A stretch of 64,000 bases of DNA from the NCBI GenBank assembly GCA_963721805.1, contig CAVRJY010000001.1, forward strand, positions 1,056,001 through 1,120,000, in the 5' to 3' direction. The DNA is from Nitrospirota bacterium. GTDB lineage: Bacteria; Nitrospirota; Thermodesulfovibrionia; Thermodesulfovibrionales; JdFR-86. Below, piece by piece: positions 583 to 47,363 of this stretch (positions are counted from its first letter, which is position 1; every line of letters starts with the position of its first letter). Position numbers and translations under genes: made by a program. The notes under the pieces were generated by a model that was not told the DNA's origin, did no database searches, and saw nothing but the letters and a program-made list of their open reading frames with translations.

Positions 583-629
583 TGCTATCCTCGACGGCTT
601 CTGTTATAATTTCGCATGAGGCTACGTAT

Positions 630-1366: not shown

Positions 1367-1384
1367 CCAATTAGGCCGTGGCTG

Positions 1385-1829: not shown

Positions 1830-1847
1830 TTTACCCTTTCTACCCCG

Positions 1848-1968
1848 CTATGGCAATCTCGCCTTTGCGCAGACGAGGGAGCCTCCATATTATATCCGAG
1901 CAATGGCGGTTTAGGATAATTATATCGTGCGAGCGGTAAAGGGTATTGACTGGAGTTCTCGCGCTTTC
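1848..1968 (+). repeat. TA-spacer repeat copy 4
   Basis: Contains the 71-bp block identical to 479-549. Confidence 0.9.
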
Positions 1969-3375: not shown

Positions 3376-3820
3376 ATCGCTTTTTTCATTTAGTTGTGAT
3401 TCAATACAGGATGACTATGATAGGCTCATTTTTGAGGGTGCTGAAAGCAGGGTCGGAGGCCGATGGACAGCGCGAAAAACGTATCCGAACATCCGAACAC
3501 GGGAGAGGTCAAATTATCGATGTTTTTCGTTACCTTGGACTGTTTTTTGTCTGTTCATTCGAACGCAATAAAAAACGCGCGCACGTGCGCGCGCGATATT
3601 CCTAACTATGCCTAAGCGCGAGCATCAGAACATGCTTTTTCCGATCAAGTCTTTGACCGTGAGGCGCGGAGGCAGCGGCTGGGCCGCGCACTTCGCAAAG
3701 CGCGATAAATCGCGTCAGACTAGGAACGGCGAGGAAAACGTCCGCAAGTGTACTGAGACGTACTCTGGAGGACGGATTTCCGAAGCCGTGACAACGTATC
3801 ACGCGACTTTAGCGCGCTTT
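3376..3820 (+). repeat. Dispersed ~440-bp structured non-coding element, copy A (hairpin 3697-3820)
   Basis: Colinear homology to the reverse complement of 24359-24787, with compensatory stem changes. Confidence 0.8.
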
Positions 3821-3855
3821 CACAGAAGCCCCCGTATGCCGTATAATGGTGCCCT

Positions 3856-4944
3856 ATGAAAATCGCGATAACTGGCCTAGCTAATTCAGGTAAGACTACT
3901 ATCTTTAACGCTTTGACGGGCCTCCGGGTCGAGACGACGATCTACCCGACGACCGGCGGCGAGCCGAACCTCGGCATCGTCAAGGTGCCGGACGAGCGCA
4001 TCGACAGGCTCTCGGCGATCTTCAAGCCCAAGAAGACCACGCACTCGACGGTGCAGTACGTGGACTATCTGGGGCTCACGAAGGGCGACATGAAGCAGAA
4101 CCGGAGCGTGTTTGAGTTCGTCAAGGACTCGGATGCGCTAGTGCACGTCGTGCGCGCCTTCGAGGACCCCTCTGTGATGCATCCGCTCGACAGCGTGGAC
4201 GCGGTCAGGGACGTGGCCACGGTCGAGACCGAGCTGCTATTTGGGGACATCGAGCTTATCGACCGCAGGCTTGAGGGCATGGAACTCGGGCTAAAGCGGG
4301 GCAAGAAGCCGAACGAGGACGAGAAGCGCGTGCTCCTGAAGTGCAAGGAGGCCCTCGATGCCGAGCGGCCGCTTCGGGACGTGGAGTTCACGGAGGACGA
4401 GGACAAGGCGGTCAGCCACCTGCAGTTCATGTCCATCCTGCCCGAGACCGTGGTGCTGAACATCGGCGAGGCCGACCTGAACACCGAACGCGCCGCGAAG
4501 CTCCAGGCCGAGGTCGAGGCGTACTACGCCGGGAGGCGCGGGGTGACGGTCGTGACGCTATCGGGGAAGGTCGAGATGGACATCGCGGAGCTCGCGCCTG
4601 ATGAGGCCCGCGCGTTCCTGGACGACCTTGGGATCAAGGAGCCCGCTCTGCACCGGCTCATAAAGCTCTCATACGCCAACGTGGGGCTTATCTCGTTCAT
4701 CACCGCGGGCGAGGACGAGGTGCGCGCATGGGCCTTAAGGAAGGGCACCGACGCCCTGCACGCGGCCGGAAAAATACACTCAGACATACAGCGCGGGTTC
4801 ATACGCGCGGAGGTCGTCTCGTGCGAGGACTTCTTCAGGCTCGGCGGCTTCAGCGAGGCCCGCGACAAGGGGCTGCTCAGGCTTGAGGGCAAGACCTACG
4901 AGGTGAGGGACGGCGACATCATCAACTTCAGGTTCAACGTCTAG
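3856..4944 (+). CDS. ychF: Redox-regulated ribosome-binding ATPase YchF
   Basis: P-loop GLANSGKTT, IHSDIQRGFIRAEV, and C-terminal LRLEGKTYEVRDGDIINFRFNV. Confidence 0.95.
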   Translation: MKIAITGLANSGKTTIFNALTGLRVETTIYPTTGGEPNLGIVKVPDERIDRLSAIFKPKKTTHSTVQYVDYLGLTKGDMKQNRSVFEFVKDSDALVHVVRAFEDPSVMHPLDSVDAVRDVATVETELLFGDIELIDRRLEGMELGLKRGKKPNEDEKRVLLKCKEALDAERPLRDVEFTEDEDKAVSHLQFMSILPETVVLNIGEADLNTERAAKLQAEVEAYYAGRRGVTVVTLSGKVEMDIAELAPDEARAFLDDLGIKEPALHRLIKLSYANVGLISFITAGEDEVRAWALRKGTDALHAAGKIHSDIQRGFIRAEVVSCEDFFRLGGFSEARDKGLLRLEGKTYEVRDGDIINFRFNV

Positions 4945-22487: not shown

Positions 22488-24296
22488 CTACGATTCCCGC
22501 ACCTTCGGGCGCTTGCCGGCCTCGAGGATTTTCTTCCTGAGCCGGATGGAATTCGGCGTGACCTCGACGAGTTCGTCTTCCTTTATGAACTCCATCGCGT
22601 TCTCCAGGCTCATGGCGCGCGGCGGCACGAGCTGCAGTGCCTCGTCGGTGCCGGAGGCGCGCATGTTGGTGAGCTTCTTTTCCTTCGTCACGTTGACGTC
22701 GAGGTCGTTCTCGCGCGAGTTCTCGCCTACGACCATGCCCTCGTAGACCGGGACGGTCTCGGCGACGAAGAGCGTGCCGCGCGGCTGCAGATGAAACAGC
22801 GCGTACATCGTGGTCTTGCCCGAGCGGTCGGATACGAGCGCGCCGTTTTTGCGCTTGCTCATCGCGCCGTGCCAGGGTTCGTAGCCGTCGAACATGTGGT
22901 TTAATAGTCCCGTCCCGCGCGTGTCGGTCAGGAACTGCGACCTGAATCCTATAAGCCCGCGCGAGGGGATGCGGAATTCGAGCCTCACCCTGCCGTGGCC
23001 GTGGTTCATCATCTTCATCATCTTGCCCTTGCGCATACCGACCTGCTGAGTCACGACGCCCACGTAGTCCTCGGGCACGTCGATCACGAGCAGCTCCATC
23101 GGCTCGTTCACCACTCCGTTTATCGTCTTGGTGATCGTCTCGGGCATGGCTATGGACATCTCATAGCCCTCGCGCCTCATCATGTCGATCAGGATCGCAA
23201 GCTGTAGCTCGCCGCGCCCCATGACCTTAAACGAGTCCATGCTCTCGAAGTCCACTCGGATCGAGACGTTATAGAGCAGCTCCTTCTCGAGCCTGTCGCG
23301 CAAATTGCGTGAGGTCACGAACTTTCCGTCGCGGCCTGAAAAAGGCGAGGAGTTCACGGAAAACACTATCGAGATCGTGGGCTCGTCCACCGTGATGCGC
23401 GGCAGCGGCTTCGGGGTCTCGGCGCTCGTGATCGTATCGCCTATCGTGACGTCCTCCATCCCGGAGAGCGCGACAATCTCGCCCATCGAGGCCTCTTTGA
23501 CCGACTCGCGCTCGAGGCCCTTGAATATATAGAGCGACGAGATCTTGGTCTTTACGAGCTCGCCCTCGGCGTGTATGTACGCGGCCTGGTCCCCTACGCG
23601 CACCGTGCCCGAAAAAATGCGCCCGATCGCGAGGCGTCCTACGTATTCGCTGTAGTCGATGTTCGTCACCAATATCTGGAGCGTGTCGTCCGGGTCGCCC
23701 TCGGGCGGCGCGACCTTCGCGATGATCACGTCAAAAAGCGGGGTGAGATTAGTCATCGGCTCATCAGGCGTAAGCCCTGCGATGCCGGCCTTGGCGTTCG
23801 TGTATACGATCGGGAAATCGAGCTGCGACTCGTTCGCGTCGAGGTCGATGAACAGGTCATAGACCTCGTTTAAGACCTCCTGTATGCGCGCGTCCGGACG
23901 GTCGATCTTGTTGATGACGAGTATCGGCGGAAGCCCGAGCTCCAGCGCCTTTTTAAGCACGAAGCGGGTCTGGGGCAGGGGGCCCTCCGAGGCGTCCACC
24001 ATCAGGAGCACGCCGTCGACCATCTTGAGCGTGCGCTCGACCTCGCCACCGAAGTCGGCGTGGCCCGGCGTGTCGACGATGTTGATCTTGACGCCGCCGT
24101 ATACGACCGCGGCGTTCTTGGCCATGATCGTAATGCCGCGCTCGCGCTCGAGGTCGATGTTGTCCATTACGCGCTCTTGAACGCGCTCGTTGGCGCGGAA
24201 CGTGCCGGCCTGTCGCAAGAGCCCGTCTACGAGGGTTGTCTTGCCGTGGTCTACGTGGGCTATAATCGCTATGTTACGAATATCGGTTCTTTTCAC
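22488..24296 (-). CDS. typA: Translational GTPase TypA/BipA
   Basis: [44 protein letters not shown]. The GTG start at 24296 is inferred. Confidence 0.95.
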
Positions 24297-24358
24297 AACC
24301 GGTAGAATAACCTTTCCGGGGTATATATTACAAATGGCACGATTTCCATGCATATTTC

Positions 24359-24787
24359 AAAGCGCGCCAAATCGCTTGATACGTCGTTGGGCATCGAAGA
24401 CTCGCCCTCTATGTACGTCACAGTACACCATCGGGCGGTCTTCTTGCCCTGCCTTGTCTGAAGCCGATTTGGACGCGCTTTCGGGGGGCACGGACGACGG
24501 ACGCCCCCCGCGCCCCACAAGGTCAACGGCATGATTGGAGGGCCGGTCATAGGTATAGTTATGCATAACGCGCGCGTGTGCGCGCATTTTTTTAGAGCGT
24601 TCGAATGAACAGAGAAAAAACAGTTTAACCTCGCGGATTTCATCGTTTTTTAACGGCTTTCCGTGTTCGGGTGTTCGGATCTGCTATTCGTGCTCTCAAC
24701 TGGCCTCCAGCCTCGTTTCCGCGTCCTCAAATACGACCATATTGGCCTCATGCCGTATTGAAGCACAAATCAAATGAAAAATCGATA
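24359..24787 (-). repeat. Dispersed ~430-bp structured non-coding element, copy B (hairpin 24359-24481)
   Basis: Homologous to 3376-3820. Confidence 0.8.
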
Positions 24788-24919
24788 GTAATTAAAAACA
24801 ATGATTTATAAAAAGTTGAGGCCACGAAAATATTTTTAAACAGTAGTTAATTGATAAGCTATCCGAAGTAAATAAATTAATAAATGTGCAAAGAAAGGGT
24901 GCAAAACTGTTAATGAAGC

Positions 24920-25001
24920 CTACGTCTTCTTGACTTCCGCTCCGGTTTTTGCCGATAGATCGGCGATCAACCCTACGTGCACCGACTCGACCTCGTAATC
25001 C
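24920..25001 (-). repeat. Degenerate copy 3 of the pheT 3' end
   Basis: Translates as EVESVHVGLIADLSAKTGAEVKKT*. Confidence 0.85.
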
Positions 25002-25048
25002 ATAGGCACGCGTATCATCTTTTTGGCGGCCGCATGATATAATTATTA

Positions 25049-25535
<487 letters not shown>

Positions 25536-25551
25536 CGGCGAGAGAAAAACC

Positions 25552-25709
25552 CTACGCTTTTCTTACTTCCGCTCCAGTTTTGGCCGACAGATCAGCAATC
25601 AACCCCGCGTGCACCGACTCGACCTCGTCGTCCGTGAGCGTGCGTTCTGCAAAGCGGTAGCCGATATTAAACCAAGGCTCTTCCTGACCTGCGGGATGAT
25701 TTATGCCCT
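25552..25709 (-). repeat. Degenerate copy 2 of the pheT 3' end
   Basis: Translates as YRFAERTLTDDEVESVHAGLIADLSAKTGAEVRKA*; homology continues upstream with indels. Confidence 0.9.
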
Positions 25710-25781
25710 CTCCTTATTGTGTGATAAGATTAGCCATAAGTGATAAATATGCGATGTTAAACGGAAACTTCAAGATAGAAC

Positions 25782-27074
25782 GTGTTGCCGAGCCTGTGTC
25801 CTTGGCTGCTGCGCGCGCAGAAACGGATGCGAATGATGCCGGATAACGAACAGCCTGAATTCCCTCCAAGGCATGAGCGGCACCGGGTGATTCGCTTCGA
25901 GCCGTCCGTCGGCACCATAATCATCTTGGTCCTCCTGGCCCCCGCGCTATGGGTGCTGAACCGGCTGTTGCCGGTGGTTATGGTGCTCGTGGCGGCCCTC
26001 ATCATCGTCGGCACCGTAAGCCCCGCTGTCCGGTGGCTCGAAAGGCGGCGCATGCGCCGGGGATATGGCATCGCGATCGTCTTCACCGGAATCCTTTTGC
26101 TCACCGTCCTGTTCGTCACGATGACGATCCCCTCGCTTATGGCGCAGGTGACGAACCTTCTGGCCCAGGAACCCGCCTTGCGGGAACGCCTGGCTAACTG
26201 GCTGTCGGGCTACCCCATGACCACCCAACTGGCCGACTTGCTTCGCGACCTGCAGCCCGGCTATCTGATGACGGCGGCCATCTCGAACGCCCTCGAGTTC
26301 TCCCGACGCGTCATCATGGTCTTCGCGTATATAATGAGTTCCGTATTCCTCGCCCTGTATATGATGATCGACCGCGATAGGCTGCGCGGAGGACTCTTTC
26401 TGGTGGTCCCCAGAAGCCACCACATCCGGCTTTCCAGGATCATGATGAACCTTGAAACCATCGTCGGCGGTTATATCCGGGGGCAGGTTATCACCTCCGC
26501 CTTAATGGTCATTTTCGTGTTTTTTCTCCTGAAGGCCTGCGGCATTTCAAACGCCTTGGCCATTGCGGCGTTCGCGGGTGTCGCTGACGTCCTGCCCTAT
26601 GTCGGAGCCCTGCTGTCGGTCGGGGCCACGATGATAGCGGCTATATCCAGCGACCCCGGAGTCATTTTCATAGTGCTGGTGCTGATGCTCGCATATGAGG
26701 AACTGGAGAGCCGCCTGATCATTCCCCGCATCTATGGACGCGAGCTGCGGCTCCCGTCATCCGTGATCCTGTTGTCGCTATTGACCGGGACAGTATTATT
26801 CGGCATCCCCGGGGCGCTTCTCGCGCTTCCGGTGGCGGCCGCGCTGCGGATGCTTATCGAGGAGCTGCGCGTCGAGCTGCCGGGCCAGCAGAAGCAGGCA
26901 GAGGATCTGGAGGTCATGCAACGTGACGTCCTCGGTGAACGGGAATATGAGCGCCGGGCCGAGGGCATGCCAGCCGAGCAGGCCGCCGCCATCGCCATAG
27001 AGATCGCGGTCGGCCGCGATAAGGAAGAGCATAGGCCGCCGCCAACGAAGACGGATGAGCCGCCAATCGAATAG
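25782..27074 (+). CDS. AI-2E (PerM/UPF0118) family transporter; true start probably a downstream Met
   Basis: GGYIRGQ, LPYVG, LIIPRIYG, GALLALPVAA. Confidence 0.9.
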   Translation: MLPSLCPWLLRAQKRMRMMPDNEQPEFPPRHERHRVIRFEPSVGTIIILVLLAPALWVLNRLLPVVMVLVAALIIVGTVSPAVRWLERRRMRRGYGIAIVFTGILLLTVLFVTMTIPSLMAQVTNLLAQEPALRERLANWLSGYPMTTQLADLLRDLQPGYLMTAAISNALEFSRRVIMVFAYIMSSVFLALYMMIDRDRLRGGLFLVVPRSHHIRLSRIMMNLETIVGGYIRGQVITSALMVIFVFFLLKACGISNALAIAAFAGVADVLPYVGALLSVGATMIAAISSDPGVIFIVLVLMLAYEELESRLIIPRIYGRELRLPSSVILLSLLTGTVLFGIPGALLALPVAAALRMLIEELRVELPGQQKQAEDLEVMQRDVLGEREYERRAEGMPAEQAAAIAIEIAVGRDKEEHRPPPTKTDEPPIE

Positions 27075-35394: not shown

Positions 35395-36741
35395 ATGAGA
35401 AAGAAGGTCATCGAGGAGTCGGTCCTCTTCGTAAGCATACTTAAGTGGGTCCTGCTCGCGTCTTGCGCGGGGGCGCTCGTAGGCGTATCGACCGCGATGT
35501 TCCTCAAACTCCTCGAATACGCCAACAGGCTGAACCCCGACAACAGGTTTTTCTATCTCATGCCAGCGGCTTTTTTCCTGAGCGTGGTCTTAATCAAATA
35601 CCTTGCCCCCGAGGCCGAGGGCCACGGCACCGAGAAGGTGATAGAGGCCGTGCACCGCAGGGCCGGGAAGATAAACCCCCTGGTCGTGCCTGTCAAGCTC
35701 GCGGCCACTATCGTCACGATAGCTACGGGCGGCTCGGCAGGCAAGGAAGGCCCTTGCGCCCAGATCGGCGCGGGCGTATCCTCGATCTTCGCCGACATAC
35801 TCAGGTTCGACGACCGCGACCGCAGGAAGCTGGTCATCTGCGGCATCAGCGCGGGGTTCGCGGCCGTATTCGGCACGCCGATCGCGGGCGCGCTCTTCGG
35901 GGTCGAGGTCCTGACGGTCGGCAGCCTTCTGTATGACGTGCTCCTGCCGTCGTTCATCTCGGGGATCGTCGGGTTCCAGGTAGCCTCGTCGCTCGGGATC
36001 ACCTATTTCCATTCGCAGATCAATTTCATCCCGGTCTTCACCAGCGGATTTTTCCTTAAGGTCTGCATAAGCGGCATCTTCTTCGGCCTGTGCTCTTTAC
36101 TGCTTATAGAATCCATGAAACTCGCCGAGAAGGGCGCGGCGCTGTTGCATATCTGGAAGCCCCTGAAGGGGATCGTCGGAGGCGCCGCCCTGGCGCTGCT
36201 GGTCCCGTTCGTATCGGCCAGCTATCTGGGGCTCGGGCTCGATACGATCAAGACCAGCCTCGAGGGCGGGGTGGTGCCGGGCGTAGCGTTTCTGATGAAG
36301 ATGGTCTTTACGTCGGTAACTCTCAGCTTCGGCGGAAGCGGCGGCATCGTGACGCCTATATTCTTCATCGGGGCCACCGCCGGGAGCGCCTTCGGCAGGA
36401 CGCTCGGGTTCGACCCCTCGGTGTTTGCCGCTATAGGGATGGTGAGCCTTCTGTCGGGGGCGGCCAATACGCCGATCTCCGCGAGCATCATGGCCGTGGA
36501 GCTGTTCGGCCCGGCCGTCGCCCCATATGCCGCCGTTGCGTGTATAATAAGCTTTCTAATGACCGGACATAGGAGCATATACCCCAGCCAGGTGCTGGCG
36601 ATGGCTAAATCATCCTCGCTCTCGGTCTCCAAAGGCAGGGAGATGAGACACCTCGACGAAGTGGATTACGAGGGGCGCGAGGGCAGCATGGTCTCTCGCG
36701 CAAAGAGGATTAACCCGTTCGGGAGGCATCCTCATGAGTGA
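35395..36741 (+). CDS. CLC-family chloride channel/antiporter
   Basis: GGSAGKEGP, AAVFGTPIAG, GGIVTP, ANTPI. Confidence 0.92.
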   Translation: MRKKVIEESVLFVSILKWVLLASCAGALVGVSTAMFLKLLEYANRLNPDNRFFYLMPAAFFLSVVLIKYLAPEAEGHGTEKVIEAVHRRAGKINPLVVPVKLAATIVTIATGGSAGKEGPCAQIGAGVSSIFADILRFDDRDRRKLVICGISAGFAAVFGTPIAGALFGVEVLTVGSLLYDVLLPSFISGIVGFQVASSLGITYFHSQINFIPVFTSGFFLKVCISGIFFGLCSLLLIESMKLAEKGAALLHIWKPLKGIVGGAALALLVPFVSASYLGLGLDTIKTSLEGGVVPGVAFLMKMVFTSVTLSFGGSGGIVTPIFFIGATAGSAFGRTLGFDPSVFAAIGMVSLLSGAANTPISASIMAVELFGPAVAPYAAVACIISFLMTGHRSIYPSQVLAMAKSSSLSVSKGREMRHLDEVDYEGREGSMVSRAKRINPFGRHPHE

Positions 36742-37168
36742 CAGCAGACAGCGCGGTATGATGCATCCGGGCCTCGCCCGGGCCGCGACCTCCCTGTTTC
36801 TGTGCTATTTCCTGGTATACGCGTTTTCTCCCCTCTCGGCCGCGTACTGCCAGGATTGTTCCTACGACACCCCGCACATATACATCCTTGAACTCGTACT
36901 AGGCGCGCTTAATCGACAGCCTGACACCGCTGGCCACGCGAGCGACGAGAGGGCCCTGCTCAGGAAGTTTCGCGCCCTCGCCGCGGGCGGCTCGGGCAGG
37001 GACAATATCGCCCAGCAGATGACCCATTCGGGAGTGGGCAGCCGCCCTATGCCCGAATCGATGCGCCGCTGCGCGCCAACCGAAGACGTCCGCATCGCGG
37101 CCTTTGCATTCGACGAGATTTATGCCGGACATTCGCCGCCCGAAGCAGCCCCCGCTGCACAGGCATGA
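36734..37168 (+). CDS. Hypothetical protein with an N-terminal hydrophobic segment
   Basis: Overlaps the CLC stop and fills the gap to pal; no recognised domain. Confidence 0.45.
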   Translation: MSDSRQRGMMHPGLARAATSLFLCYFLVYAFSPLSAAYCQDCSYDTPHIYILELVLGALNRQPDTAGHASDERALLRKFRALAAGGSGRDNIAQQMTHSGVGSRPMPESMRRCAPTEDVRIAAFAFDEIYAGHSPPEAAPAAQA

Positions 37169-37221
37169 GCCTGCCCCTTAGGGGCGGCGAATATCGATTT
37201 TATCGCAAGGGAGATACATCC

Positions 37222-37776
37222 ATGAAGGCTTCAGCGTTAATCATAACGATCCTGTTCGCGTTCGCTCTCGGATGCGCCCATAAAGAGACTGTCAAGCCGG
37301 CCGATACCTCCAAGGCCGCCTCCGCCACGGCAGCGCAGGCCAGCGCCACGGGCGCCGCTAATGCAGCGGCGGCAGCTAACAATGCCTCATCCAAGTCCGG
37401 AGCTTCGGCCGACCAGCAGGCGGCCGCGGCGCTCCAGGGCAAGCTCCACGACATCCACTTCGACTACAACAAGTCCGTTATACAGAACTCCGACAAGCCC
37501 GTGCTGAAGGACCTCGCCGCAACGCTGAAGGCCAAGAAGGCTCTGGGCGTCAGGGTCGAGGGCAACTGCGACGAACGCGGCACTACGGAATATAACCTCG
37601 CGCTCGGGGACCGCAGGGCGCGCGCCGCAAAGGACTTTCTGGTCGCGCAGGGCGTCCGGGCCAAGCGGATCAAGGCAGCGAGCAACGGCAAGGAAAAGCC
37701 GCTCTGTGCCGAGCATAACGAGGAGTGCTGGGCAAAAAACCGCCGCGACGCGTTCGTGCTTGCAGAGCATAAGTAA
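37222..37776 (+). CDS. pal: Peptidoglycan-associated lipoprotein (OmpA family)
   Basis: Lipobox ALGC, IHFDY, EGNCDERGTTEYNLALGDRRA, NRR. Confidence 0.9.
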   Translation: MKASALIITILFAFALGCAHKETVKPADTSKAASATAAQASATGAANAAAAANNASSKSGASADQQAAAALQGKLHDIHFDYNKSVIQNSDKPVLKDLAATLKAKKALGVRVEGNCDERGTTEYNLALGDRRARAAKDFLVAQGVRAKRIKAASNGKEKPLCAEHNEECWAKNRRDAFVLAEHK

Positions 37777-37936: not shown

Positions 37937-39583
37937 ATGAACTGCAGCGACAGATACAAACGGCTCATCGACCGCGGGCTCGTAAGCCCCGAGGAGCTCG
38001 GGAGGCTGTCTGAGGAATCACGCTCAAGCGGTGCGTGCATCGAGCAGGCCCTCCTCGACAGGGGGATACCGAAGCACGAGCTCCTGTTCAGCCTCGCGGA
38101 GTGCTACGGCCGCCCATTCGTTGAGTACGAGGAGTCCGTCGTCGTCTCGCATACGCTTGCGCGCACGCTGGACCTGCAGCGCCTCAAGCACGAGCTCTGG
38201 GTCCCGCTCTCGGCCGGGAAGGGCCGTGCCGAGGTCATCGCCTGCGACCCTTCCGACCCGCCGATGCTCGAGGAGATCCGGCGGCTGTTCCCCGGCGCAG
38301 AGGTCGATTTCTCGGTCGCGCTGCCGCGCGACATCGTGCGCATCATAGAGCACAACCAGGACCTGAACCCGAACTTCACGCCCACCGGGGGGCGCACCCC
38401 TTTGGCGAAGGTCAGGACGTTCCTCGCCGACAGGCGCTCGCTGATGTCGTGGTTTAGGACGTCGCTCGCCAAGGGCCGCACCGGGCTTGCGATGTTCCGC
38501 ACGGGCATATCGTTCACCGCGATTGCGCTGGCGCTGTTTCGGGTGTTCGGCTACGGGTGGCACAATATCATCGAGGCCGCGCTCATAGCCCTCGGCGCGG
38601 TGCTATTCTATGAGGGCGCCAAGTGGTATCACCCGGCGCGCAGCATCGGGAAGCAGGCCATAAGCTGCCGCGACACCGGAGCGACCGGGGGCACGACCGT
38701 GCTCGAACTGATCAATCCGGGCAACACCCCGGGCTTCGTCCGGTCTGCGCCGATCCCGGGCGCTGCCGGGCTCAGGGCCCTATGGGAGCGCCTCTCTCCG
38801 GTGATGCGCAGGAGGTTTCTGGCCTCGGACCGCACGGACTTCGCCGAGGAGCGCACGCTCCTGGCCTGCTACCGCACGGTGATGGCCAAGGCCCGCACCG
38901 GGCTTGCGTTCACGCGCTCCGGCATAGCGATGATCGGCCTCGGGGTCGCGTTTCTCCGCGCGTTTCCGGCTGGCGGGCCGTGGACGGTCTTTGACTTCGC
39001 GCTCATCACGGTAGGCCTTCTTATGACCGCCGAGGGGTTTTACTGGTATCTGCCGGGGCGCACCGCGGGCCGGACCTGCATGGTATTCATCAATGCGGCC
39101 GACTGCGCCCCATCGTTTTGGGACACTATCGTGCCGCCATCGCATAAGGGCGTGGACCTCGAGACGTTCCGCCACGGCCGCCCCCCGGTGCATGCCGGCC
39201 AGACGCCCGGGATATGGGCCACAACAGGCCACGCGCTCGAGCGCACGCTGCTTGCCGAGCGCAGAAACGTGATGGCCCGCCTGCGCACGGTCATGGCCCG
39301 CTCGCGCACCGGGCTCGCGCTGATCCGCACAGGGCTGAGCATCGCCTCGGTCGGCCTCGGCCTTCAGGTATATTTCGGCCTGGGCAACCCCTACTGGACC
39401 GCGTTTAACTCGGCCCTCATGATCACCGGACTCGTGTTTGCGGCAGACGGGCTTTACTGGCATGTCCCGGCCAACCGCATCCGCCGGCAGCTCCCCTACT
39501 GCTTCGGGGACATCGAGATCACGGTGCCGAATTACGGCGTTCCGTCCAACGAGTGGAAGAGGGCGGTCTTCAGGCATGGCTGA
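37937..39583 (+). CDS. Membrane protein: GspE/PilB N-terminal (MshEN-like) domain plus three DUF202-like repeats
   Basis: LIDRGLVSPEEL...LAECYGRPFV...WVPL...DP, then three (RTxLAxx)n plus 2-TM units. Confidence 0.75.
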   Translation: MNCSDRYKRLIDRGLVSPEELGRLSEESRSSGACIEQALLDRGIPKHELLFSLAECYGRPFVEYEESVVVSHTLARTLDLQRLKHELWVPLSAGKGRAEVIACDPSDPPMLEEIRRLFPGAEVDFSVALPRDIVRIIEHNQDLNPNFTPTGGRTPLAKVRTFLADRRSLMSWFRTSLAKGRTGLAMFRTGISFTAIALALFRVFGYGWHNIIEAALIALGAVLFYEGAKWYHPARSIGKQAISCRDTGATGGTTVLELINPGNTPGFVRSAPIPGAAGLRALWERLSPVMRRRFLASDRTDFAEERTLLACYRTVMAKARTGLAFTRSGIAMIGLGVAFLRAFPAGGPWTVFDFALITVGLLMTAEGFYWYLPGRTAGRTCMVFINAADCAPSFWDTIVPPSHKGVDLETFRHGRPPVHAGQTPGIWATTGHALERTLLAERRNVMARLRTVMARSRTGLALIRTGLSIASVGLGLQVYFGLGNPYWTAFNSALMITGLVFAADGLYWHVPANRIRRQLPYCFGDIEITVPNYGVPSNEWKRAVFRHG

Positions 39584-40769
39584 GATGGAGGCATACAGAA
39601 GCCTCGTCACATGGGGCGCGGTAAGCGAGGAGGCGCTCAGAGAGGCCGATATCGGTGCGAGGGCACGGGGCATAAGCCTCGAGCGCGCCATCATCACCGA
39701 ACTCGGCGTGCCCAAGCGCACGATCGTCAAGGCCCTGGCGATACACTACGGCGTCCCTTATGTCGAATACGACGAGCGCATCCCCGTGCCCCCGAAACTC
39801 ATCGCGCACCTCGAGGCCGACCGCCTCTCGTCGGACAACTGGTTTCCGTTTTCGGAGGAAGGCGGCTCCGCCGTCGCCGTCGCGGCAGCCGACCCGCTCG
39901 ACGAGGCCATGAGGCAGGAGGTCCGCGAGAGCTTCCCTGACGCCAGCGAGATAAGGTTTCACGTCGCGCTCGAAGAGGACATCCAGTGGTACATACTCGA
40001 CTTCATGCACGCCCGTCCCGGCAAACTCGTCGGGACCGAGCGCACGGGGCTCGCGTACTGGCGCAACACTATGGCCCACTGGCGGACGCGTATGGCCTGC
40101 TACCGCACGGACCTCGCTCTGGCGCGGACCTGGCTTGCCGCGATGCGCGGCGGGCTCGGGCTGGTCGTCATCACGGACGCCCTGATACGCGCTGGCAAGT
40201 TTTCTTCGCGCGGCCCGCTGCTTGCGCTTCTGGGCCTGGGCGCGCTGATGGCTCTCTACGGGATATGGCAGTACCTCAAGATCAGAAAGACAAGCCTTAC
40301 GCCCCCTGGGGACCAGACGCTGGTCGAGGTGACGACGGCGACGGTGCATTTTCTGGAGAACTACGACAGGCTCGAGCACGCGTACAGGCCGCCCCTGAAG
40401 GGCACGATGCTGCACCGGCTGGTCGATTTCATCGAGCCGTACTGCATGATCCTCTATCCGCACCCAGGCAGCGTCGAGCGCACCCACCTCGCGCGCGAAC
40501 GCAACGTGCTCGCCGCCCAGCGCACCATTGCAGGCTGCTACAGGACGCTATACGCCCGCGCCCGCACCGGCCTTTCGTTCATACGCTCGGGGGTCGCGTT
40601 CTCCGCGGCCGGGCTGAGCCTGCTGCACTACTTCAAGGTCTCGGCCTTCTCCGCGGTCGAGGCCTCGCTGTTCGTGATCGGGGTTTTCATGATAATTGAC
40701 GGTATACTATGGTATCTGCCCGCGCGGGGCGAGCAGTCCGAGCTTACGCGCTGCCCGATACCGGAGTGA
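39576..40769 (+). CDS. Paralogous membrane protein: MshEN-like domain plus two DUF202-like repeats
   Basis: ATG at 39576 overlaps the previous stop; LAIHYGVPYV...WFPF...AADP, then two (RTxLAxx)n plus 2-TM units. Confidence 0.75.
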   Translation: MAEMEAYRSLVTWGAVSEEALREADIGARARGISLERAIITELGVPKRTIVKALAIHYGVPYVEYDERIPVPPKLIAHLEADRLSSDNWFPFSEEGGSAVAVAAADPLDEAMRQEVRESFPDASEIRFHVALEEDIQWYILDFMHARPGKLVGTERTGLAYWRNTMAHWRTRMACYRTDLALARTWLAAMRGGLGLVVITDALIRAGKFSSRGPLLALLGLGALMALYGIWQYLKIRKTSLTPPGDQTLVEVTTATVHFLENYDRLEHAYRPPLKGTMLHRLVDFIEPYCMILYPHPGSVERTHLARERNVLAAQRTIAGCYRTLYARARTGLSFIRSGVAFSAAGLSLLHYFKVSAFSAVEASLFVIGVFMIIDGILWYLPARGEQSELTRCPIPE

Positions 40770-40778
40770 GACTATTTC

Positions 40779-42179
40779 ATGAAAATAGAAAACAAGATCC
40801 TCCTTTCGAACACCCTGAGCCTGGTGCTCATCGCCGTGATCGGCCTGTTTGCGATCAGGGAGACGAACCTCGTGCTGACGAAGCTCCACTTCGTCGAGAT
40901 CGCGGACGACCTTAACGCCTCGTTTCTCGAGATGCGGCTCTCGGAGAAGAACTATTTCCTCTATAAAGAAGCCGTGGACCTCAGGGACATCCTCGACAAG
41001 CTCGACTCGACCTACGGCACTATAATGTCCGAGCGCGAGAGCATCGAGCTGGCGGTCGGCCGCGATACCATCGACGAGCTTGTCATGCGCCTCAGCGAAT
41101 ACCGCAACGTCGTGGACAAGGTGCTCAAGTCCCAGGGCGACATCAGCGGAGCGCAGGAGCTTGTGCGCGAGAAGGGCAAGGCCCTCAGGACGTTTTCCGA
41201 CGACATCACCAGGGCCGAGCGTGATAACGTAAACCGCCTCGTATATAACGCCGCAAAGCTGATGCTGTTCGGTACGATGGCGGTCATAGTGATCTCGTTC
41301 GTGATCCTCCGGGTCATATCCCGCAAGGTATCGCGCTCGCTCCGCACGGTCGAGACCCTGGCCGAGACGATCTCGCAGGGGGACTTTCACCTCAAGGGCC
41401 TTGACGCCCCGTCAAACGACGAGGTCGGCTCGGTCATCCGCGCGATCAACCAGATGTCCGAGCGGCTGGCCGAGCGCGAGGACGAACTCGTGCAGGCCAA
41501 GAAGCTCTCGTCGCTGGGCATCCTCACGGCGGGCGTGGCCCACGAGCTCACCAACCCGTTAAACAACATCTCGATGACCGCGCAGACATATCAGGAGCTT
41601 TACGCCAAGCTCAGCGAGGCCCAGCGCATATCGTTCATGGCTACGATAGAGTCCGAGACCGACCGCATAAGGGACATAGTGCGCAACCTCCTGGATTTCG
41701 CGAAGCCCAAGGAGCTCGCGCTCCAGCCGATTGACATCAACGAGGTGATACGCCACACGCTCCCGCTCGTGCGGAACATGCTGGAGATATCGAACCTGGA
41801 CCTGGACCTCGACCTCCGGCCCGGCCTTCCGCGCGTGGTGATCGATGAGGGCCAGATACGTCAGGTGCTCGTAAACCTTATAACGAACGCGGCGCAGGCC
41901 TCCTCGCCCCGGATGAGCATCTCGATCTCCTCGAGGCGCGCCGCCGCGGGCGGCGTGGAGGCGTCCGTCTCGGACACCGGCAAGGGCATCCCCCAGGAGC
42001 AGGTCCCGCACCTCTTCGACCCGTTCTTCACGACCAAGGGCGAGGGCGGCACCGGCCTCGGACTTTCGATCAGTTATGGCATAATCAAAAAGCACGGCGG
42101 CGAGATCAGGGTATCGAGCACCGTGGGCAAGGGGTCTACCTTTACGGTAGTCCTGCCCTCGACGCCTGCAGTTAAATGA
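40779..42179 (+). CDS. HAMP sensor histidine kinase (NtrB-like)
   Basis: AGVAHELTNPL, QVLVNLITNA, DTGKG, FDPFFTTK, GTGLGL. Confidence 0.95.
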   Translation: MKIENKILLSNTLSLVLIAVIGLFAIRETNLVLTKLHFVEIADDLNASFLEMRLSEKNYFLYKEAVDLRDILDKLDSTYGTIMSERESIELAVGRDTIDELVMRLSEYRNVVDKVLKSQGDISGAQELVREKGKALRTFSDDITRAERDNVNRLVYNAAKLMLFGTMAVIVISFVILRVISRKVSRSLRTVETLAETISQGDFHLKGLDAPSNDEVGSVIRAINQMSERLAEREDELVQAKKLSSLGILTAGVAHELTNPLNNISMTAQTYQELYAKLSEAQRISFMATIESETDRIRDIVRNLLDFAKPKELALQPIDINEVIRHTLPLVRNMLEISNLDLDLDLRPGLPRVVIDEGQIRQVLVNLITNAAQASSPRMSISISSRRAAAGGVEASVSDTGKGIPQEQVPHLFDPFFTTKGEGGTGLGLSISYGIIKKHGGEIRVSSTVGKGSTFTVVLPSTPAVK

Positions 42180-42190
42180 TGGAGGGAAAC

Positions 42191-42550
42191 ATGAACAGCG
42201 TAATGATCATCGACGACGAGAAGATTGTGGGCGACATGGCCAAGCTCTCGCTCGAACAGGAAGGCTACGAGGTCGAGACGTTCACGAACGCAGAGCCCGC
42301 GCTTAAGCGGCTCGGCGAGCGCGCCTTTGACATCGTGGTCACGGACTACAAGATGAAGGGCATCGACGGCATGGAGGTGCTGAGGACGATCAAGCGGCTC
42401 TACCCTGGGACCAAGGTCATAATGATCACGGCGTTTGCGAACCTCGACACCGCTATCGAGGCCCTGCGCGCCGACGTCTTCGATTTCTTCCCGAAGCCGG
42501 TCAAGATCAAGGAACTCAAGGAATCGATCAAAAAAGCGCTCGCGGCCTGA
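42191..42550 (+). CDS. Single-domain response regulator
   Basis: IIDDE, VVTDYKM, MITA, KP. Confidence 0.92.
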   Translation: MNSVMIIDDEKIVGDMAKLSLEQEGYEVETFTNAEPALKRLGERAFDIVVTDYKMKGIDGMEVLRTIKRLYPGTKVIMITAFANLDTAIEALRADVFDFFPKPVKIKELKESIKKALAA

Positions 42551-42556
42551 TCCGGC

Positions 42557-45088
42557 ATGGACCACGCCTCGCCGTTTCGCGATGCCGTCGGGAAGCTCAT
42601 GCGCAAGGTCATGCCCCGGCGCGGCCGCGACGTCTCGGCCGTGTTCGAGGAGTTCCGGCTGGTGCTCGCCGCAAACAGCGAATCGCTTGACGCCATCGCG
42701 GATATGACCGACAAGCTCGGCGGCGAGTACATCTTCGACGCGGTCTACGTGCTTAACGCGAGCGACGCGATAATCTCGAAGGTCGGCCGCTCGGTCGAGG
42801 CCTTCCGCGCACTCACCGAGGGCCGCTACGACCTGGACGGCCCGTTTGCCTCGATCTCCTCCGCCATCGGCCGCATAGCCCGCGAGACTCGCTACGAGGG
42901 CACGCCCTCATACGTGCTCTCTTATCCTGATATAAGCTGGGAGCACTCGCAGGACGTCGGCGGCAAGAACTACCACCTCGCGCGGATGTCCCAGGCTGCC
43001 GGGCTCCACGTACCCGAGGCCTTCGCTATCACGGTCTCCGCGTTCGACCGGTTCATCAGCCATAACCACCTTGAAAATGCCATGGCCTCATGCGCCGGCG
43101 CAGAGGCATGCGCCATAGACGAGCTCAGGCGCGCGATAGCGGACGCCGAGGTCCCGCCCGAGGTCGCGGCGGAGATAACCTCCGCTCTGGCGCGTATGAG
43201 AGCGACCTGCCCCGAACCGTGCTTCCTCGCCGTCCGCAGCAGCGCCGAGGAGGAGGACGGGGAGTTCAGCTTCGCCGGACAGTTCGATACCGCCCTTAAC
43301 GTCCCGGCCGAGCCCGGCCCTGTGATGGACGCTTACAAGCGTGTGCTCGCGAGCCTGTATTCCGAGCGCTCGGTGGCATATCTGCGCGGGCTCGGGTATC
43401 CGCTAGGCTCGCTTCGGATGGCAGTGGCGTGCGTGCGTATGGTAGATGCGCGCTCAAGCGGCGTGGTCTATACCGCGCAGGCCGCGGGCAGGCAGGACCA
43501 GATCGTGGTAAACGCGGTCTGGGGGCTCGGAAACCGCCTCGTGGAGGGTGGGGCAGAGGCCGACCTCTACGTGTTCGAACGCGGGCCGCTCCGCCTTGGC
43601 GAGAGCCGCATAGCGGACAAGCCTATCAGCGTCTCCGCATCCTCTCAGGGCGGCGTCGCGGACGTCGATACCCCGGCCGGGATCAGAAATGCGCCTTGTC
43701 TCACGGACGCAGAGGCGATGGCGCTCGCGCAGGCGAGCCTCGATATCGAGCGCATGTTCCACGGCCCGCAGGACATCGAGTGGGCTATGGGCCAAGACGG
43801 CATGCTTTACATGCTGCAGGCCCGGCCGCTCAAGGTCGAGGAGCGCGCCAACGGAGGCGGGGCGCGGGCGGCCACGGGCGAGGCGCTGCTGCGCGATACC
43901 GGCTCGGTCGTACAGCCGGGCGTCGCGGCCGGGCGCGTCGTCATTCTTACGAACCCCAAGGACCTCGAGCGCGTCGCTCGCGGGAGCATCCTCGTTGCGA
44001 AGGCGGATTCGCCGCAGTTCATCGTAGCGATGCACCGCCTCGCTGCGATCATCACCGACAGCGGCTCGCCGACCGGGCATATGGCCTCGCTCTGCCGCGA
44101 GCTCCGCGTCCCCGCGGTGGTCAACACGCGCGCTGCCACGCACCTGCTTAGGGACGGGGCCGAGGTGACCCTGCACGCTGACACCGAGGGGCATTACGCT
44201 ATTTTCGAGGGCATAGACGAGGCGCTGCTGCGCAGCGCCGGGGGCTCGCGCGCCGAGGTCGAGCGCCTGTACGAATACCGCAGGAAGCGCTCGATCATGC
44301 GCTTCGTGACGCCGCTGAACCTCGTTAACCCTCTAGTGGACGACTTCCGGCCCGAGAGGTGCGAGACCCTGCACGACCTCCTCAGGTTCATCCACGAAAA
44401 AGCCGTGCAGGAGCTGATCGCGGTCTCCTCCCAGGCCGACCGGTCCAACAAGCCCCGCGACCTGAGCCTCCCCGTGCCGATGCGCATGAAGGTCATCGAC
44501 ATAGGCGGGGGCATAGCCCCGTCGTCCCCGGCGCATACCATGGAGGTGGGCGAGATCGTATCGGAGCCGCTTCGGGCCATAGTCGCCGGGATGGTGCGCG
44601 AGGGCGTATGGAAGCTCGGCCCGGCGGCCATGGGCGTGGGGGACTTCATGACGAGCATGATGCGCACCGACGACATTACCCAGCGCGGCGAGGACTACCT
44701 CGTAAACAACGTCGCGGTCGTCTCGGGCGAGTACATGAACCTGAGCCTCAGGCTCGGGTACCACTTCAACCTCATCGACTGCTACGCGAGCGGGCACGCG
44801 GCCCACAACCACATCTACTTCAGGTTCTTCGGCGGCGCGACGGACATGACGAAACGCTCGCGGCGCGTCAGGATGATCGAGACGATACTCAACGAGATAG
44901 GCTTCATATCGGACGTCAAGGGAGACCTGATCGTGGCCCGCATCTCGGGGCTCGAGAAGCCGGAGGTCCTGCGCATCATCGAGAGGCTGGGGTGCCTGGT
45001 GGCGTTCACCAAGCAGCTAGATACAGAGCTCGTAAGCGACGAGTCAGCCGCGGCCCATGCAAGGGAATTTTTGGAGCAGTATCCTTAA
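42557..45088 (+). CDS. PEP-synthase/PPDK-like dikinase: ATP-grasp domain, phospho-His swivel domain and non-canonical C-terminal domain
   Basis: VGGK, AVRSSA..ED..SFAGQF, QDIEWA, LQARP, GSPTGHMASLCRE; no recognisable pyruvate-binding TIM barrel. Confidence 0.85.
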   Translation: MDHASPFRDAVGKLMRKVMPRRGRDVSAVFEEFRLVLAANSESLDAIADMTDKLGGEYIFDAVYVLNASDAIISKVGRSVEAFRALTEGRYDLDGPFASISSAIGRIARETRYEGTPSYVLSYPDISWEHSQDVGGKNYHLARMSQAAGLHVPEAFAITVSAFDRFISHNHLENAMASCAGAEACAIDELRRAIADAEVPPEVAAEITSALARMRATCPEPCFLAVRSSAEEEDGEFSFAGQFDTALNVPAEPGPVMDAYKRVLASLYSERSVAYLRGLGYPLGSLRMAVACVRMVDARSSGVVYTAQAAGRQDQIVVNAVWGLGNRLVEGGAEADLYVFERGPLRLGESRIADKPISVSASSQGGVADVDTPAGIRNAPCLTDAEAMALAQASLDIERMFHGPQDIEWAMGQDGMLYMLQARPLKVEERANGGGARAATGEALLRDTGSVVQPGVAAGRVVILTNPKDLERVARGSILVAKADSPQFIVAMHRLAAIITDSGSPTGHMASLCRELRVPAVVNTRAATHLLRDGAEVTLHADTEGHYAIFEGIDEALLRSAGGSRAEVERLYEYRRKRSIMRFVTPLNLVNPLVDDFRPERCETLHDLLRFIHEKAVQELIAVSSQADRSNKPRDLSLPVPMRMKVIDIGGGIAPSSPAHTMEVGEIVSEPLRAIVAGMVREGVWKLGPAAMGVGDFMTSMMRTDDITQRGEDYLVNNVAVVSGEYMNLSLRLGYHFNLIDCYASGHAAHNHIYFRFFGGATDMTKRSRRVRMIETILNEIGFISDVKGDLIVARISGLEKPEVLRIIERLGCLVAFTKQLDTELVSDESAAAHAREFLEQYP

Positions 45089-45134: not shown

Positions 45135-45656
45135 CTATTCGTCGCCCAGGTTAGCCTCGCCGCCATTGTCGGAGGCTTCACCGGTTTTATCCTTCCGAGC
45201 GCGTTTCTTCTGCTCAAGCTCCTCGCGCCACTGCTCTATGGTGCTGTCGTGGAGCGCCAGCGCCTCTTTCGCCCTGTCCGGCATGACCTTTGAGCAATAG
45301 GCCATAACCTTCGCGGCGAGCTCATCGGGCTCGAAGGGCTTGACGATATACCCGCATATGCCGAGCCTTACGAAGGACATGACGTCGTCGCCTTTCGAGA
45401 GCGAGGTGACCATCACTACCTGCGTGGCCTTGTCGTTGCATACCTTGCGGATCTCCTTCAGCACGCTGTAGCCGGTCATCACCGGCATCACGCTGTCGAG
45501 CAATATCAGCTCGGGGTGGGATTTCTTGTATGACTTGAGCGCGTCCTCGCCGTTTTCGACCATCTCGATATCAAACGCGTGGCCGCTCAGGGACTGCTCG
45601 TACAGGTCCCTTACCAGTGCGTCGTCCTCGGCGATAAGCAGTTTCAGTTTTTCCAT
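45135..45656 (-). CDS. Response regulator (REC plus charged tail)
   Basis: IAEDD, LLDSVMP, KPF. Confidence 0.85.
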   Translation of the reverse strand: MEKLKLLIAEDDALVRDLYEQSLSGHAFDIEMVENGEDALKSYKKSHPELILLDSVMPVMTGYSVLKEIRKVCNDKATQVVMVTSLSKGDDVMSFVRLGICGYIVKPFEPDELAAKVMAYCSKVMPDRAKEALALHDSTIEQWREELEQKKRARKDKTGEASDNGGEANLGDE

Positions 45657-45731: not shown

Positions 45732-47363
45732 CTACAGGCCACCGCTTAAAACCACCGCGTTTCTGCCTCCGTGTTTTGCGGCGTAGAGCGCCTTGTCGCT
45801 CTCGGCCATCAGGGTGAGGACGTCATCGAACTGCGGAAACGATGCGATGCCGCAGCTGAAGGTGCACGAAAATTGAGTCTGTCCGGCGGTGTGGACGATC
45901 TGGCCGAAGCTCTTGCGGATGTCGTCGATCACCCTCAGGGCGTCCGCGCCTTTCGTCTCTCCGAGCACTACCGCGAACTCCTCGCCCCCGTAGCGGCCAA
46001 CGACATCGGTGCGCCTGAGCCTTTGCTTAAGGAGCTTCGAGATGCTGACGATCACCTTGTCGCCGACGGGGTGCCCGTAAGTGTCGTTGACCGACTTGAA
46101 CTTGTCGATGTCGATCATCGCGAACGAGACCTCGCCGCCGCTGCGCCGCGCCCTGTCGAGGGCGATGTCGAGCTGTTCCTTGGTCTTCGTGTGGTTTAAG
46201 AGCCCGGTCAGGCTGTCGCAGTCCATCGTGGAGCGGATGTTCCTCATGCGCTCGGCCCTTGCCGTAACGGCCGAGACGAGGTGCTCGGGCTCGATGGGCT
46301 TAGTCAGAAAGTCGTCCCCGCCGGTTTGCATCGCATTTAGCTGGCGCTTCAGGTCGGTTTCGGCCGAGAGAAATACGATGGGGATGCTCAGGTATTGGTT
46401 GTCCTGCCGGATCACCTGAGCGAGCTCGTGCCCCGTGCAGCCGGGCATATACATGTCCATGAGGATGATATCGGGGGCGAAGTCCCCTATGCGCTTAAAG
46501 ACATTCGCGGGGTCGTTTATGACCTCGACTGTCATCGCGGCCTGCCTGAGGACCGCGGCATGGTATTCTGAAAGCTCGACCTCGTCGTCCACGATAAGCA
46601 CGCGGTAAAGCTCTCTTACCTCGGACTGGGTCAGCATGTCGATCTTATCAACGACGGAGAAGACGTTTATGGGCTTCAGGAAATACGCGTCGGCCCCCGC
46701 GCGCACCGCCTTCAGGCGGGACTCGAACTCGTCCATCGCCGAGATGAATATTATCGGTATCTCGTGCTTCGCGCGTATCACGACGGCCGTCTGCGCCCCC
46801 CCGAATATCCCCTCAGGAAACATCATGTCAATGACTATCACCGACGGCGGGGCCTCGTCTACCGCATCCCTCAGGGCCTTGAGCGCCGAGAACCCGCGCA
46901 CCTCATACCCATACTGCGATATCTGGACCGAGAGGCTGTTGAGCAGCTCTGTATCATCCTCCGCGATATAGACGGTCCGGGCGTTCGTGCTATCCACGGA
47001 TTTTATTTGCGTAGGCGAGGCTGAGGGAGAGACGGCAGCCGTCTCAGGCTTGGCGCACACCGGTGGAGTTTCCTGAGCTGGCTCGTCAGGGAATATGACG
47101 GCCTTGAGGGCCGCCGGTATCTCGCCACGGTCGTTGTCCCCGCTCTCGATGCCTTTGAGCACGCGCTCGAGGGCCCTGGCGCGGAGGCCCAGCTCCTTAA
47201 GCCCGAACGTGGCCGATGAGCCCGCGATAGTGTGCGCGGCCCTTATGGCATCGGCAAGGGATTGCGCATCGCCCGCGCTCAGGCAGAGCGATTCAAGCTC
47301 CCGAAGCCGCTCGGGCAGGCTGTCCGTATAGCGTTTTTTCAGCGCCTCAAGCGGGCTGGCCAT
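45732..47363 (-). CDS. Diguanylate cyclase, Hpt-REC-REC-GGDEF
   Basis: AHTIAGSS, two REC domains, DSLTGL, RRTD I-site, GRYGGEEF. Confidence 0.93.
   Translation of the reverse strand: MASPLEALKKRYTDSLPERLRELESLCLSAGDAQSLADAIRAAHTIAGSSATFGLKELGLRARALERVLKGIESGDNDRGEIPAALKAVIFPDEPAQETPPVCAKPETAAVSPSASPTQIKSVDSTNARTVYIAEDDTELLNSLSVQISQYGYEVRGFSALKALRDAVDEAPPSVIVIDMMFPEGIFGGAQTAVVIRAKHEIPIIFISAMDEFESRLKAVRAGADAYFLKPINVFSVVDKIDMLTQSEVRELYRVLIVDDEVELSEYHAAVLRQAAMTVEVINDPANVFKRIGDFAPDIILMDMYMPGCTGHELAQVIRQDNQYLSIPIVFLSAETDLKRQLNAMQTGGDDFLTKPIEPEHLVSAVTARAERMRNIRSTMDCDSLTGLLNHTKTKEQLDIALDRARRSGGEVSFAMIDIDKFKSVNDTYGHPVGDKVIVSISKLLKQRLRRTDVVGRYGGEEFAVVLGETKGADALRVIDDIRKSFGQIVHTAGQTQFSCTFSCGIASFPQFDDVLTLMAESDKALYAAKHGGRNAVVLSGGL

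Follow-up and report, generated by a model that had tools for sequence, protein, structure and literature searches.

The DUF202/YidH proteins form a large family in bacteria and archaea. To our knowledge the family is without a shown function, except that its members in the eukaryotic VTC polyphosphate channel, where they serve as membrane domains, are understood. Described here is a pair of overlapping genes, referred to as A and B, that together encode five tandem DUF202 units fused to MshEN-type domains. The pair lies in a 64,000-nucleotide stretch of DNA from a Nitrospirota bacterium of the class Thermodesulfovibrionia (assembly GCA_963721805.1, contig CAVRJY010000001.1, positions 1,056,001 to 1,120,000). 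This whole stretch is what was analysed and is called the window; coordinates are given within it. The analysis followed up an earlier note, made from the DNA letters, which had proposed that the two proteins supply the five helices of an arginine-lined channel. The results suggest that A and B are a variant of the VTC/DUF202 pentameric ring.

VTC is described as a 3:1:1 pentamer in which each subunit has three membrane helices and the five first transmembrane (TM1) helices make the pore; the cytoplasmic mouth of that pore carries two basic rings one heptad apart, formed by K24 and R31 in Vtc1 (PMC9911596; bioRxiv 10.1101/2023.01.27.525886). DUF202 is listed as a Pfam family found with SPX-VTC proteins (PMC12388464). 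YidH is reported to have been considered as a D-alanine exporter, but as a candidate it failed to reduce the D-alanine content of cells (PMC10299036). Among the listings of a literature search outside subscription journals, no paper joined DUF202/YidH with MshEN or T2SSE_N terms.

Compared with the VTC ring (three Vtc1 with Vtc3 and Vtc4; structures 7ytj, 8i6v and 9umg), the A/B pair appears to share the DUF202 membrane unit and, as predicted, has five such units round one axis. In both, the first helix of each unit would form the inner ring, basic residues are spaced one heptad apart, and cytoplasmic regulatory domains occupy two of the five positions. In contrast, VTC consists of five chains whereas A/B consists of two (3+2), and VTC has two basic levels whereas A/B has six levels of arginine. 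The A/B system, whose host is bacterial, also differs in its MshEN-type N-domains and in being without the TTM polymerase and SPX; Pfam found neither domain in the two proteins or in the products of the three genes that follow them. Members of the canonical DUF202/YidH family (PF02656) share with A/B an ERTxLAxxRT signature at the start of the first membrane helix. They are single units of about 100–160 amino acids, whereas A/B has tandem units that are distributed between two genes and joined to MshEN domains.

Gene Pair and Repeat Units

The two genes, their domains and their units are as follows.

Gene A, 37937..39583, + strand: 548 amino acids, MshEN-type N-domain then three DUF202 hairpin units (open reading frame, Pfam).
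MshEN/GspE-N-type domain of A, 37937..38371, + strand: residues 1–145 (Pfam PF05157, E 3.4e-11).
Unit A1, 38384..38644, + strand: arginine ladder R153, 160, 167, 174, 181, 188; helices 153–204 and 210–238.
Unit A2, 38801..39064, + strand: arginine ladder R292, 299, 306, 313, 320, 327; helices 288–342 and 350–390.
Unit A3, 39224..39478, + strand: arginine ladder R436, 443, 450, 457, 464, with Thr at the sixth level; helices 426–480 and 485–518.
Gene B, 39576..40769, + strand: 397 amino acids, MshEN-type N-domain then two DUF202 hairpin units (open reading frame, Pfam).
Unit B1, 40023..40289, + strand: arginine ladder R156, 163, 170, 177, 184, 191, with Trp at two g positions; helices 152–206 and 213–239.
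Unit B2, 40461..40730, + strand: arginine ladder R302, 309, 316, 323, 330, 337; helices 300–353 and 359–389.

The likely start of gene B is the ATG at 39576, which overlaps the end of gene A, including its TGA stop codon, by 8 nucleotides; a second in-frame ATG occurs at 39585, and the longest frame opens with TTG. Two coupled genes were thus found where the earlier note had placed them, and every heptad string it had quoted is present letter for letter in the translations. Its assignment of 3+2 DUF202 units and MshEN N-domains also held in a Pfam check, in which all domain matches in both proteins exceeded the curated cut-offs (23.4 for DUF202). In A, MshEN was matched over residues 57–142 (E 3.4e-11) and DUF202 (PF02656) in three stretches (E 2.1e-11, 44.5 bits). 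In B, MshEN was matched over residues 58–141 (E 2.8e-10) and DUF202 in two stretches (E 1.2e-06, 29.3 bits).

AlphaFold2 models of A and B, built from alignments of 46 and 31 sequences, respectively, had a predicted local distance difference test score (pLDDT) of 81.5 and a predicted template modelling score (pTM) of 0.71 for A, and corresponding values of 78.7 and 0.55 for B. Each unit is modelled as a continuous helix of 52–55 residues that a short turn connects to another helix, 27–41 residues long. Hydropathy agrees with the models, and with what had been proposed, in giving two membrane segments per unit, for a total of six in A and four in B. Since the segments of a unit are two in number, its ends lie on the same side of the membrane, and units can be strung in tandem.

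The long helix opens with R-T-x-L/M-A-x-x heptads, and in all five units an RT-x-LA signature leads into the first membrane helix. Counted from the membrane face, the arginines occupy six levels. The sole gap is at the outermost level of A3, where threonine is found, and the total is 29. Each of these 29 ladder arginines is 94–100% conserved among the 46 A and 31 B sequences, while pairwise identity among the five units is 35–41%. The conservation of the arginines, together with the mutual alignment of the units, sets the repeat pattern far from chance. At some outer levels an acidic residue immediately precedes the arginine (E305, D298, E435, E308, E301 and E155). The domain content, repeat anatomy, conservation, five-unit count and operon of A/B are established by these observations and by the survey of loci described below.

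Predicted A:B Ring

The membrane parts of A (residues 146–548) and B (residues 148–397) were folded together, with controls. The A:B pair scored 0.77, 0.77 and 0.76, compared with 0.00 for the best control. Among 157 solved complexes, 116 attained the mark used for this score, whereas only two of 215 mismatched pairs did so; these counts are only rough here given the custom alignments. Runs of the A:B prediction shared at least 76% of their contacts, and the partner pLDDT was at least 63.

In the predicted pair, the long helix of A unit 1 (153–204) lies against the long helix of B unit 2 (298–351), and that of A unit 3 (432–478) against that of B unit 1 (153–199). Because both contacts occur in one and the same A:B pair, both open ends are joined, which gives a ring in the order A1-A2-A3-B1-B2. 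The contact faces are heptad-patterned, comprising positions a, b, e and f in A unit 1 and g, a, d and e in B unit 2, with every arginine included. The arginine at heptad position a is shared by the two faces, which would fit an orientation towards the axis. A 3+2 pseudo-pentamer of A and B is well supported in silico by these predictions. The expectation that a 1:1 pair would yield five pore helices with 5–6 stacked rings of arginine likewise finds support in silico, in the pair score of 0.77 and in the ring-closing contacts.

Relation to VTC and Proposed Assembly

The DUF202 signature that had been recognized in the repeats is upheld by the above-cut-off Pfam matches and by profile comparison: a profile of the A/B units matched canonical single-unit DUF202 proteins with an hhalign probability of 99.5 (E 3.6e-23). 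The canonical DUF202 profile, in turn, matched the Vtc1 chains 9umg_A, 8i6v_A and 7ytj_A at E 6.6e-4 to 1.4e-3. Homology of the A/B units to Vtc1 thus appears to hold, in silico, through the bridging canonical profile. Through this chain of profiles, R181 of unit A1 aligns with R31 of Vtc1, and heptad arithmetic would place R174 at the position of Vtc1 K24; both inner arginines are kept in all five units. From these alignments it follows that the two inner levels of arginine would be the VTC rings and the remaining four levels an extension of them.

The reading judged probable on balance is that A and B form a 1:1 pseudo-pentameric DUF202 ring in which a long, cation-lined passage conducts an anionic substrate or binds it along its track. 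The two proteins would be co-produced from the overlapping genes and assemble 1:1, their 3+2 hairpins closing into one ring in the order given above. Five continuous helices of about 52–55 residues would make the inner ring and the second helices the outer ring, for ten membrane helices in total. At heptad position a of the inner helices, the 29 near-invariant arginines would be stacked six levels high. Of these levels, the two by the membrane face would be the counterparts of the rings formed by K24 and R31 in the yeast VTC channel, and with the four others the positive track would reach about 4 nm further into the cytoplasm, yielding the long conduit or track for an anionic substrate. The MshEN-type N-domains, having lost the cyclic di-GMP (c-di-GMP) motif, may act as docking or dimerising domains, and a sensor kinase encoded downstream would phosphorylate a receiver-only regulator that acts on the ring.

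Such an arrangement is of interest in several respects. Two co-translated chains would fix the stoichiometry at five, which offers a direct structural hypothesis for the whole DUF202/YidH family. Every ring position could be mutated singly in the A/B pair, and with two chains rather than three it would be a convenient target for cryo-electron microscopy. The regulators that accompany the pair suggest a way in which rings of this type are gated. With a phospho-polymer as cargo, the system would represent PPK-independent polymer handling in sulfur-cycling anaerobes; with any other cargo, the arginine ladder would nonetheless be a long anion track of a new kind.

Distribution and Unit Count

Of 8000 scored candidates, 973 qualified as homologues of A at E <= 0.001. 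Those listed, 120 in all, are 512–589 amino acids long, and 119 of them combine PF05157 with PF02656. A scan of one genome per species provided 33 loci, which together with the window make 34 and in which hairpins were counted independently of reading frame. Their hosts are Nitrospirota, Desulfobulbaceae/Desulfobulbia, and metagenome-assembled genomes labelled Thiohalomonas, Proteobacteria, Deltaproteobacteria. In the host class the distribution of A is patchy, with A present in 16 of 151 sampled genomes and in 11 of 88 genera.

Five units, as the standard 3+2 pair, are present in 29 of the 34 loci. The earlier note had asked whether homologous loci always total five, and this is so in most cases, the number not varying freely, though two loci have eight units and one has a single unit. 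Among the 31 fetched loci that are uncut by contig ends, 28 have five units, two have eight and one has one. The loci with other counts are the following.

L009 and L012: eight units, two tandem A genes then one B (3+3+2).
L025: two units, cut by a contig end.
L032: four units, cut by a contig end.
L036 (5956–9142): one unit, A truncated after its first unit (201 amino acids), no B, and a dikinase gene directly after it.

The A paralogues in L009 and L012 are about 52–55% identical to A of the window. Frameshifted copies (L028, L033, L034 and L037) still hold five units; for L033, an arrangement as single-unit genes was considered and rejected, as the locus is the usual 3+2 pair broken by frameshifts. 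B follows directly after A in 31 of the 33 fetched loci.

A FastTree phylogeny of 200 units separates the five unit positions into as many clades, with support of 97, 100, 97, 100 and 95. From this separation it follows that the five positions were fixed before the sampled lineages diverged. As to the order in which the units arose, the only pairings between positions in the tree had support of just 65 and 72.

MshEN-Type N-Domains

The N-domains of A and B belong with the MshEN and GspE-N1 domains of MshE (5htl), PilF (GSPII-B, 8pdk) and XpsE (XpsE-N, 2d28), with which they have a fold and a sequence family in common. For instance, the sequence of the A N-domain matches PilF GSPII domains at E 2.8e-13 to 9e-06. 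A Foldseek search with the A model returned 11 matches at E <= 0.001, all of the MshE/PilF type, with PilF GSPII-B at E 1.7e-05. The N-domain of B superimposes on MshE 5htl_B with a Z score of 14.9 and a root-mean-square deviation of 3.3 over 139 residues. Unlike MshE, PilF and XpsE, A and B have no ATPase after the domain, the c-di-GMP motif is gone, and membrane hairpins are fused in its place downstream.

The c-di-GMP site of MshEN is described as two 24-residue RLGxx..G..L..L..Q motifs (PMC5013675). The model for this motif, NF053729, reached 12.9 bits in A against a cut-off of 38 and had no match in B. In the alignments of A and B the RLG...Q motifs are lost: where RLG has its glycine, both proteins carry Phe/Tyr or Glu instead, and the glutamine positions are unconserved. 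In Desulfobulbaceae, the A proteins are without the first ~40 residues. Regulatory cytoplasmic N-domains, as earlier suggested, are thus retained as to MshEN fold and family and not as to the c-di-GMP motif. Judging from these sequences, the domains more likely serve docking or dimerising than c-di-GMP reception.

Neighbouring Genes

Three genes on the same strand follow B.

40779..42179, + strand: membrane sensor histidine kinase (HAMP, HisKA, HATPase_c; Pfam).
42176..42550, + strand: receiver-only response regulator (Pfam).
42557..45088, + strand: dikinase of 843 amino acids resembling phosphoenolpyruvate (PEP) synthase, with ATP-grasp, mobile His domain and a C-terminal region of ~290 amino acids (Pfam PPDK_N, PEP-utilizers).

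In 25 of the 33 fetched loci, B is followed by the kinase and receiver. The dikinase is next after the receiver at 22 loci, while in L036 its gene immediately succeeds the truncated A. Loci L015, L016 and L025 end too early for their downstream genes to be judged. Within the cluster, conservation is highest for the receiver, at 73–85% identity across loci. Related proteins P0148 and P0149 consist of about ten heptads and a single DUF202 unit, then a receiver domain. The C-terminal receiver of P0148, which follows its heptad array and one DUF202 unit, is 46% identical to the operon receiver (E 5e-35), so that receivers of this type are connected with DUF202 units by a natural fusion.

The dikinase shares with PpsA (2ols, 8a8e) an ATP-grasp domain and a swivelling His domain, with a profile E of 2.8e-98 over positions 116–561. 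It differs in that the profile match ends at ~570 and in having an extra N-terminal region of ~115 amino acids. Against the NCBIfam PEP synthase model it scored 297 bits, under the equivalog cut-off of 598. Its C-terminal ~290 amino acids are Arg/His-rich and gave no Pfam match and no match to a PEP/pyruvate-binding domain; the Atlas clusters returned for this region were unnamed or called only "PEP-utilizing enzyme family". Proteins with this C-domain, PEP-synthase-like and ~850–1080 amino acids long, occur in 86 of the 151 class genomes, with up to six matches per genome. The dikinase is a frequent partner of A/B and not an obligatory or exclusive one.

Other genes surround the operon in the window. 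Two on the opposite strand are convergent with it:

45135..45656, − strand: receiver-only protein of 173 amino acids.
45732..47363, − strand: protein of 543 amino acids with an Hpt-like N-terminus, two receiver regions and GGDEF.

Upstream, at 35395..37776 (+ strand), are genes for a ClC-type chloride channel, a 144-amino-acid open reading frame and an OmpA-family lipoprotein-like protein. The 144-amino-acid frame had no family match, and none of the three upstream genes had a tblastn match above 60 bits in the other fetched loci. With respect to base composition, the G+C fraction of the window is 0.46–0.50 at 1..4000 and 0.52 at 24001..26000, as opposed to about 0.60–0.65 elsewhere.

Weighing the Explanations

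Several observations weigh against A and B forming a VTC-like conduit. The lumen-facing orientation of the arginines and the existence of a pore would follow from contact lists rather than from coordinates of the complex. The folding model may also recall the solved VTC pentamer, and a pass would then express likeness and not binding. Twenty-nine arginines in one bundle require counter-ions. As for homology, Vtc4 was matched by the canonical DUF202 profile only at E 1.7–2.0. A search of the PDB with the A/B unit profile returned no VTC chain among its four matches at E <= 10, the best of which was a TetR protein at 0.15. No VTC row stood among the 50 Foldseek rows listed for the A model against the PDB, which were of MshEN type or weak ABC-exporter rows, nor among the 50 VIA-align rows listed for the B model, which were MshE-type rows and generic helical bundles. 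By models and hydropathy the A/B units have two membrane helices, whereas VTC subunits have three. With respect to the loci, the unit count has its exceptions in L009 and L012 (eight) and L036 (one), and L008, L023, L024 and L026 possess A and B without kinase, receiver or dikinase; no partner common to L008 and L024 was found among their neighbours. The dikinase family occurs in genomes where A was not found as well and so is not specific to A/B. Finally, the genome, which is 94% complete, gave no match to PPK1 or PPK2.

An alternative that we consider unlikely, while giving it real weight, is that the five-helix arginine bundle is not a transport device at all and serves as a ligand-binding stalk or sensor for an anion in the cytoplasm (a polyanion, lipid head group or nucleotide, for example), either reporting to the kinase and receiver or being set by them. 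Four of the six levels of arginine are outside the membrane, and in related single-unit proteins the heptads number up to dozens, far beyond what a pore would need. Signalling genes also surround A/B, and the structures similar to the B model in its membrane part are all generic helical bundles, with a best Z of 10.8, under the caution line of about 13 that applies to helical proteins. However, the levels at the membrane face align with the VTC pore rings, and the strict count of five fits a ring with a central axis. A further supposition is that A and B make no single 1:1 ring, and instead act separately or enter larger or mixed assemblies, for example with an extra A paralogue or the single-unit DUF202 protein encoded elsewhere in the genome. 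Two loci, L009 and L012, do have two A genes and one B, one more DUF202 gene exists on contig 2, and the isolated B model packs its two hairpins as a four-helix bundle. We give this supposition a small chance, as B directly follows A in 31 of 33 loci with overlapping frames in the window, the five positions are separately conserved, and in the prediction a single A:B pair has the contacts needed to close the ring at its two open sides.

The nature of the cargo invites bolder proposals. The operon could be a PPK-independent machine for polyphosphate or another phospho-polymer, in which polymer made by the dikinase right at the ring's mouth is exported through the ring, as by VTC, with the kinase and receiver in control. 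Homology of the units to the VTC polyphosphate channel would be in keeping with this, as would the presence in the same operon, at 22 loci, of an ATP-dependent phosphotransferase with an Arg/His-rich C-domain. Ordinary polyphosphate kinases are nearly absent from the host class (PPK1 in one of 151 genomes, PPK2 in two), which speaks against a channel fed by them and would be in keeping with a PPK-independent machine. Yet this lack is class-wide and includes the 135 of 151 genomes in which A was not found, so that PPK and A show no complementary pattern. The four loci that have A and B without the dikinase, and the prevalence of the dikinase family where A was not found, also count against the proposal. 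We know of no enzyme of the dikinase family that makes polyphosphate, nor of a role here for periplasmic polyphosphate export. The proposal is accordingly regarded as quite improbable, and its fuller form as a bacterial counterpart of VTC, with a polyphosphate or phospho-polymer made by the dikinase without PPK and threaded through the 3+2 ring under the switch of kinase and receiver, as slightly more so.

Least probable of all would be gating of the ring by c-di-GMP at its two MshEN domains. The fold does match c-di-GMP-bound MshE and PilF GSPII-B. There are 23 GGDEF matches in the genome, and the window, like four of the 33 loci (L023, L026, L008 and L031), has a GGDEF gene no more than 6 kb away from A/B. 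Against this stand the RLG...Q motifs that were not kept, the low score of NF053729 in A and its lack of a match in B, and the Desulfobulbaceae A proteins in which the first ~40 residues are missing. The 1:1 pseudo-pentameric ring of A and B continues to be the preferred account.

Unit Numbers in Other Proteins

The unit profile was searched over 1.84 billion representative proteins, with 2671 matches at E <= 0.001. Hairpins were counted in the best 150 of the 2671 with a model that demands at least 35 matched positions. Among these 150 chains, 11 have three hairpins (340–569 amino acids), 12 have two (eight of 397–411 amino acids and four shorter), 103 have one and 24 have none, the last being heptad arrays or fragments. 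No chain with four hairpins, or with more than three of the A/B type, was found among the best 150 matches.

One of the matched proteins, P0205 (476 amino acids), has five units by the full-unit model, one by the strict hairpin filter and four DUF202 stretches by Pfam (E 1.6e-30). Its only relative is P0272 (487 amino acids, 49% identity), which also has five units. In both, each unit has two or three RT heptads, which are invariant between the two proteins, and two hydrophobic segments; the sources are short assemblies. P0205 and P0272 are a rare, separate family of two members, with five units in a single chain. A total of five units therefore recurs in three forms: as five chains in VTC, as 3+2 in A/B and as one chain in P0205/P0272.

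Other proteins of this kind are diverse in architecture. P0143, P0145 and others are single-unit DUF202 proteins with runs of 10–20 or more RT-x-LA heptads, while P0215, P0223 and P0228, which match the unit profile, are soluble heptad-repeat proteins without a hairpin. P0264 (489 amino acids) has a heptad array and a DUF202 unit fused to a transporter domain of the SBF (sodium/bile acid symporter) family. The genome of the window itself holds a separate canonical DUF202 gene (G000 contig 2, 628437–628682, − strand, locus L001), with a frame of 138 amino acids and a Pfam E of 6.5e-19.

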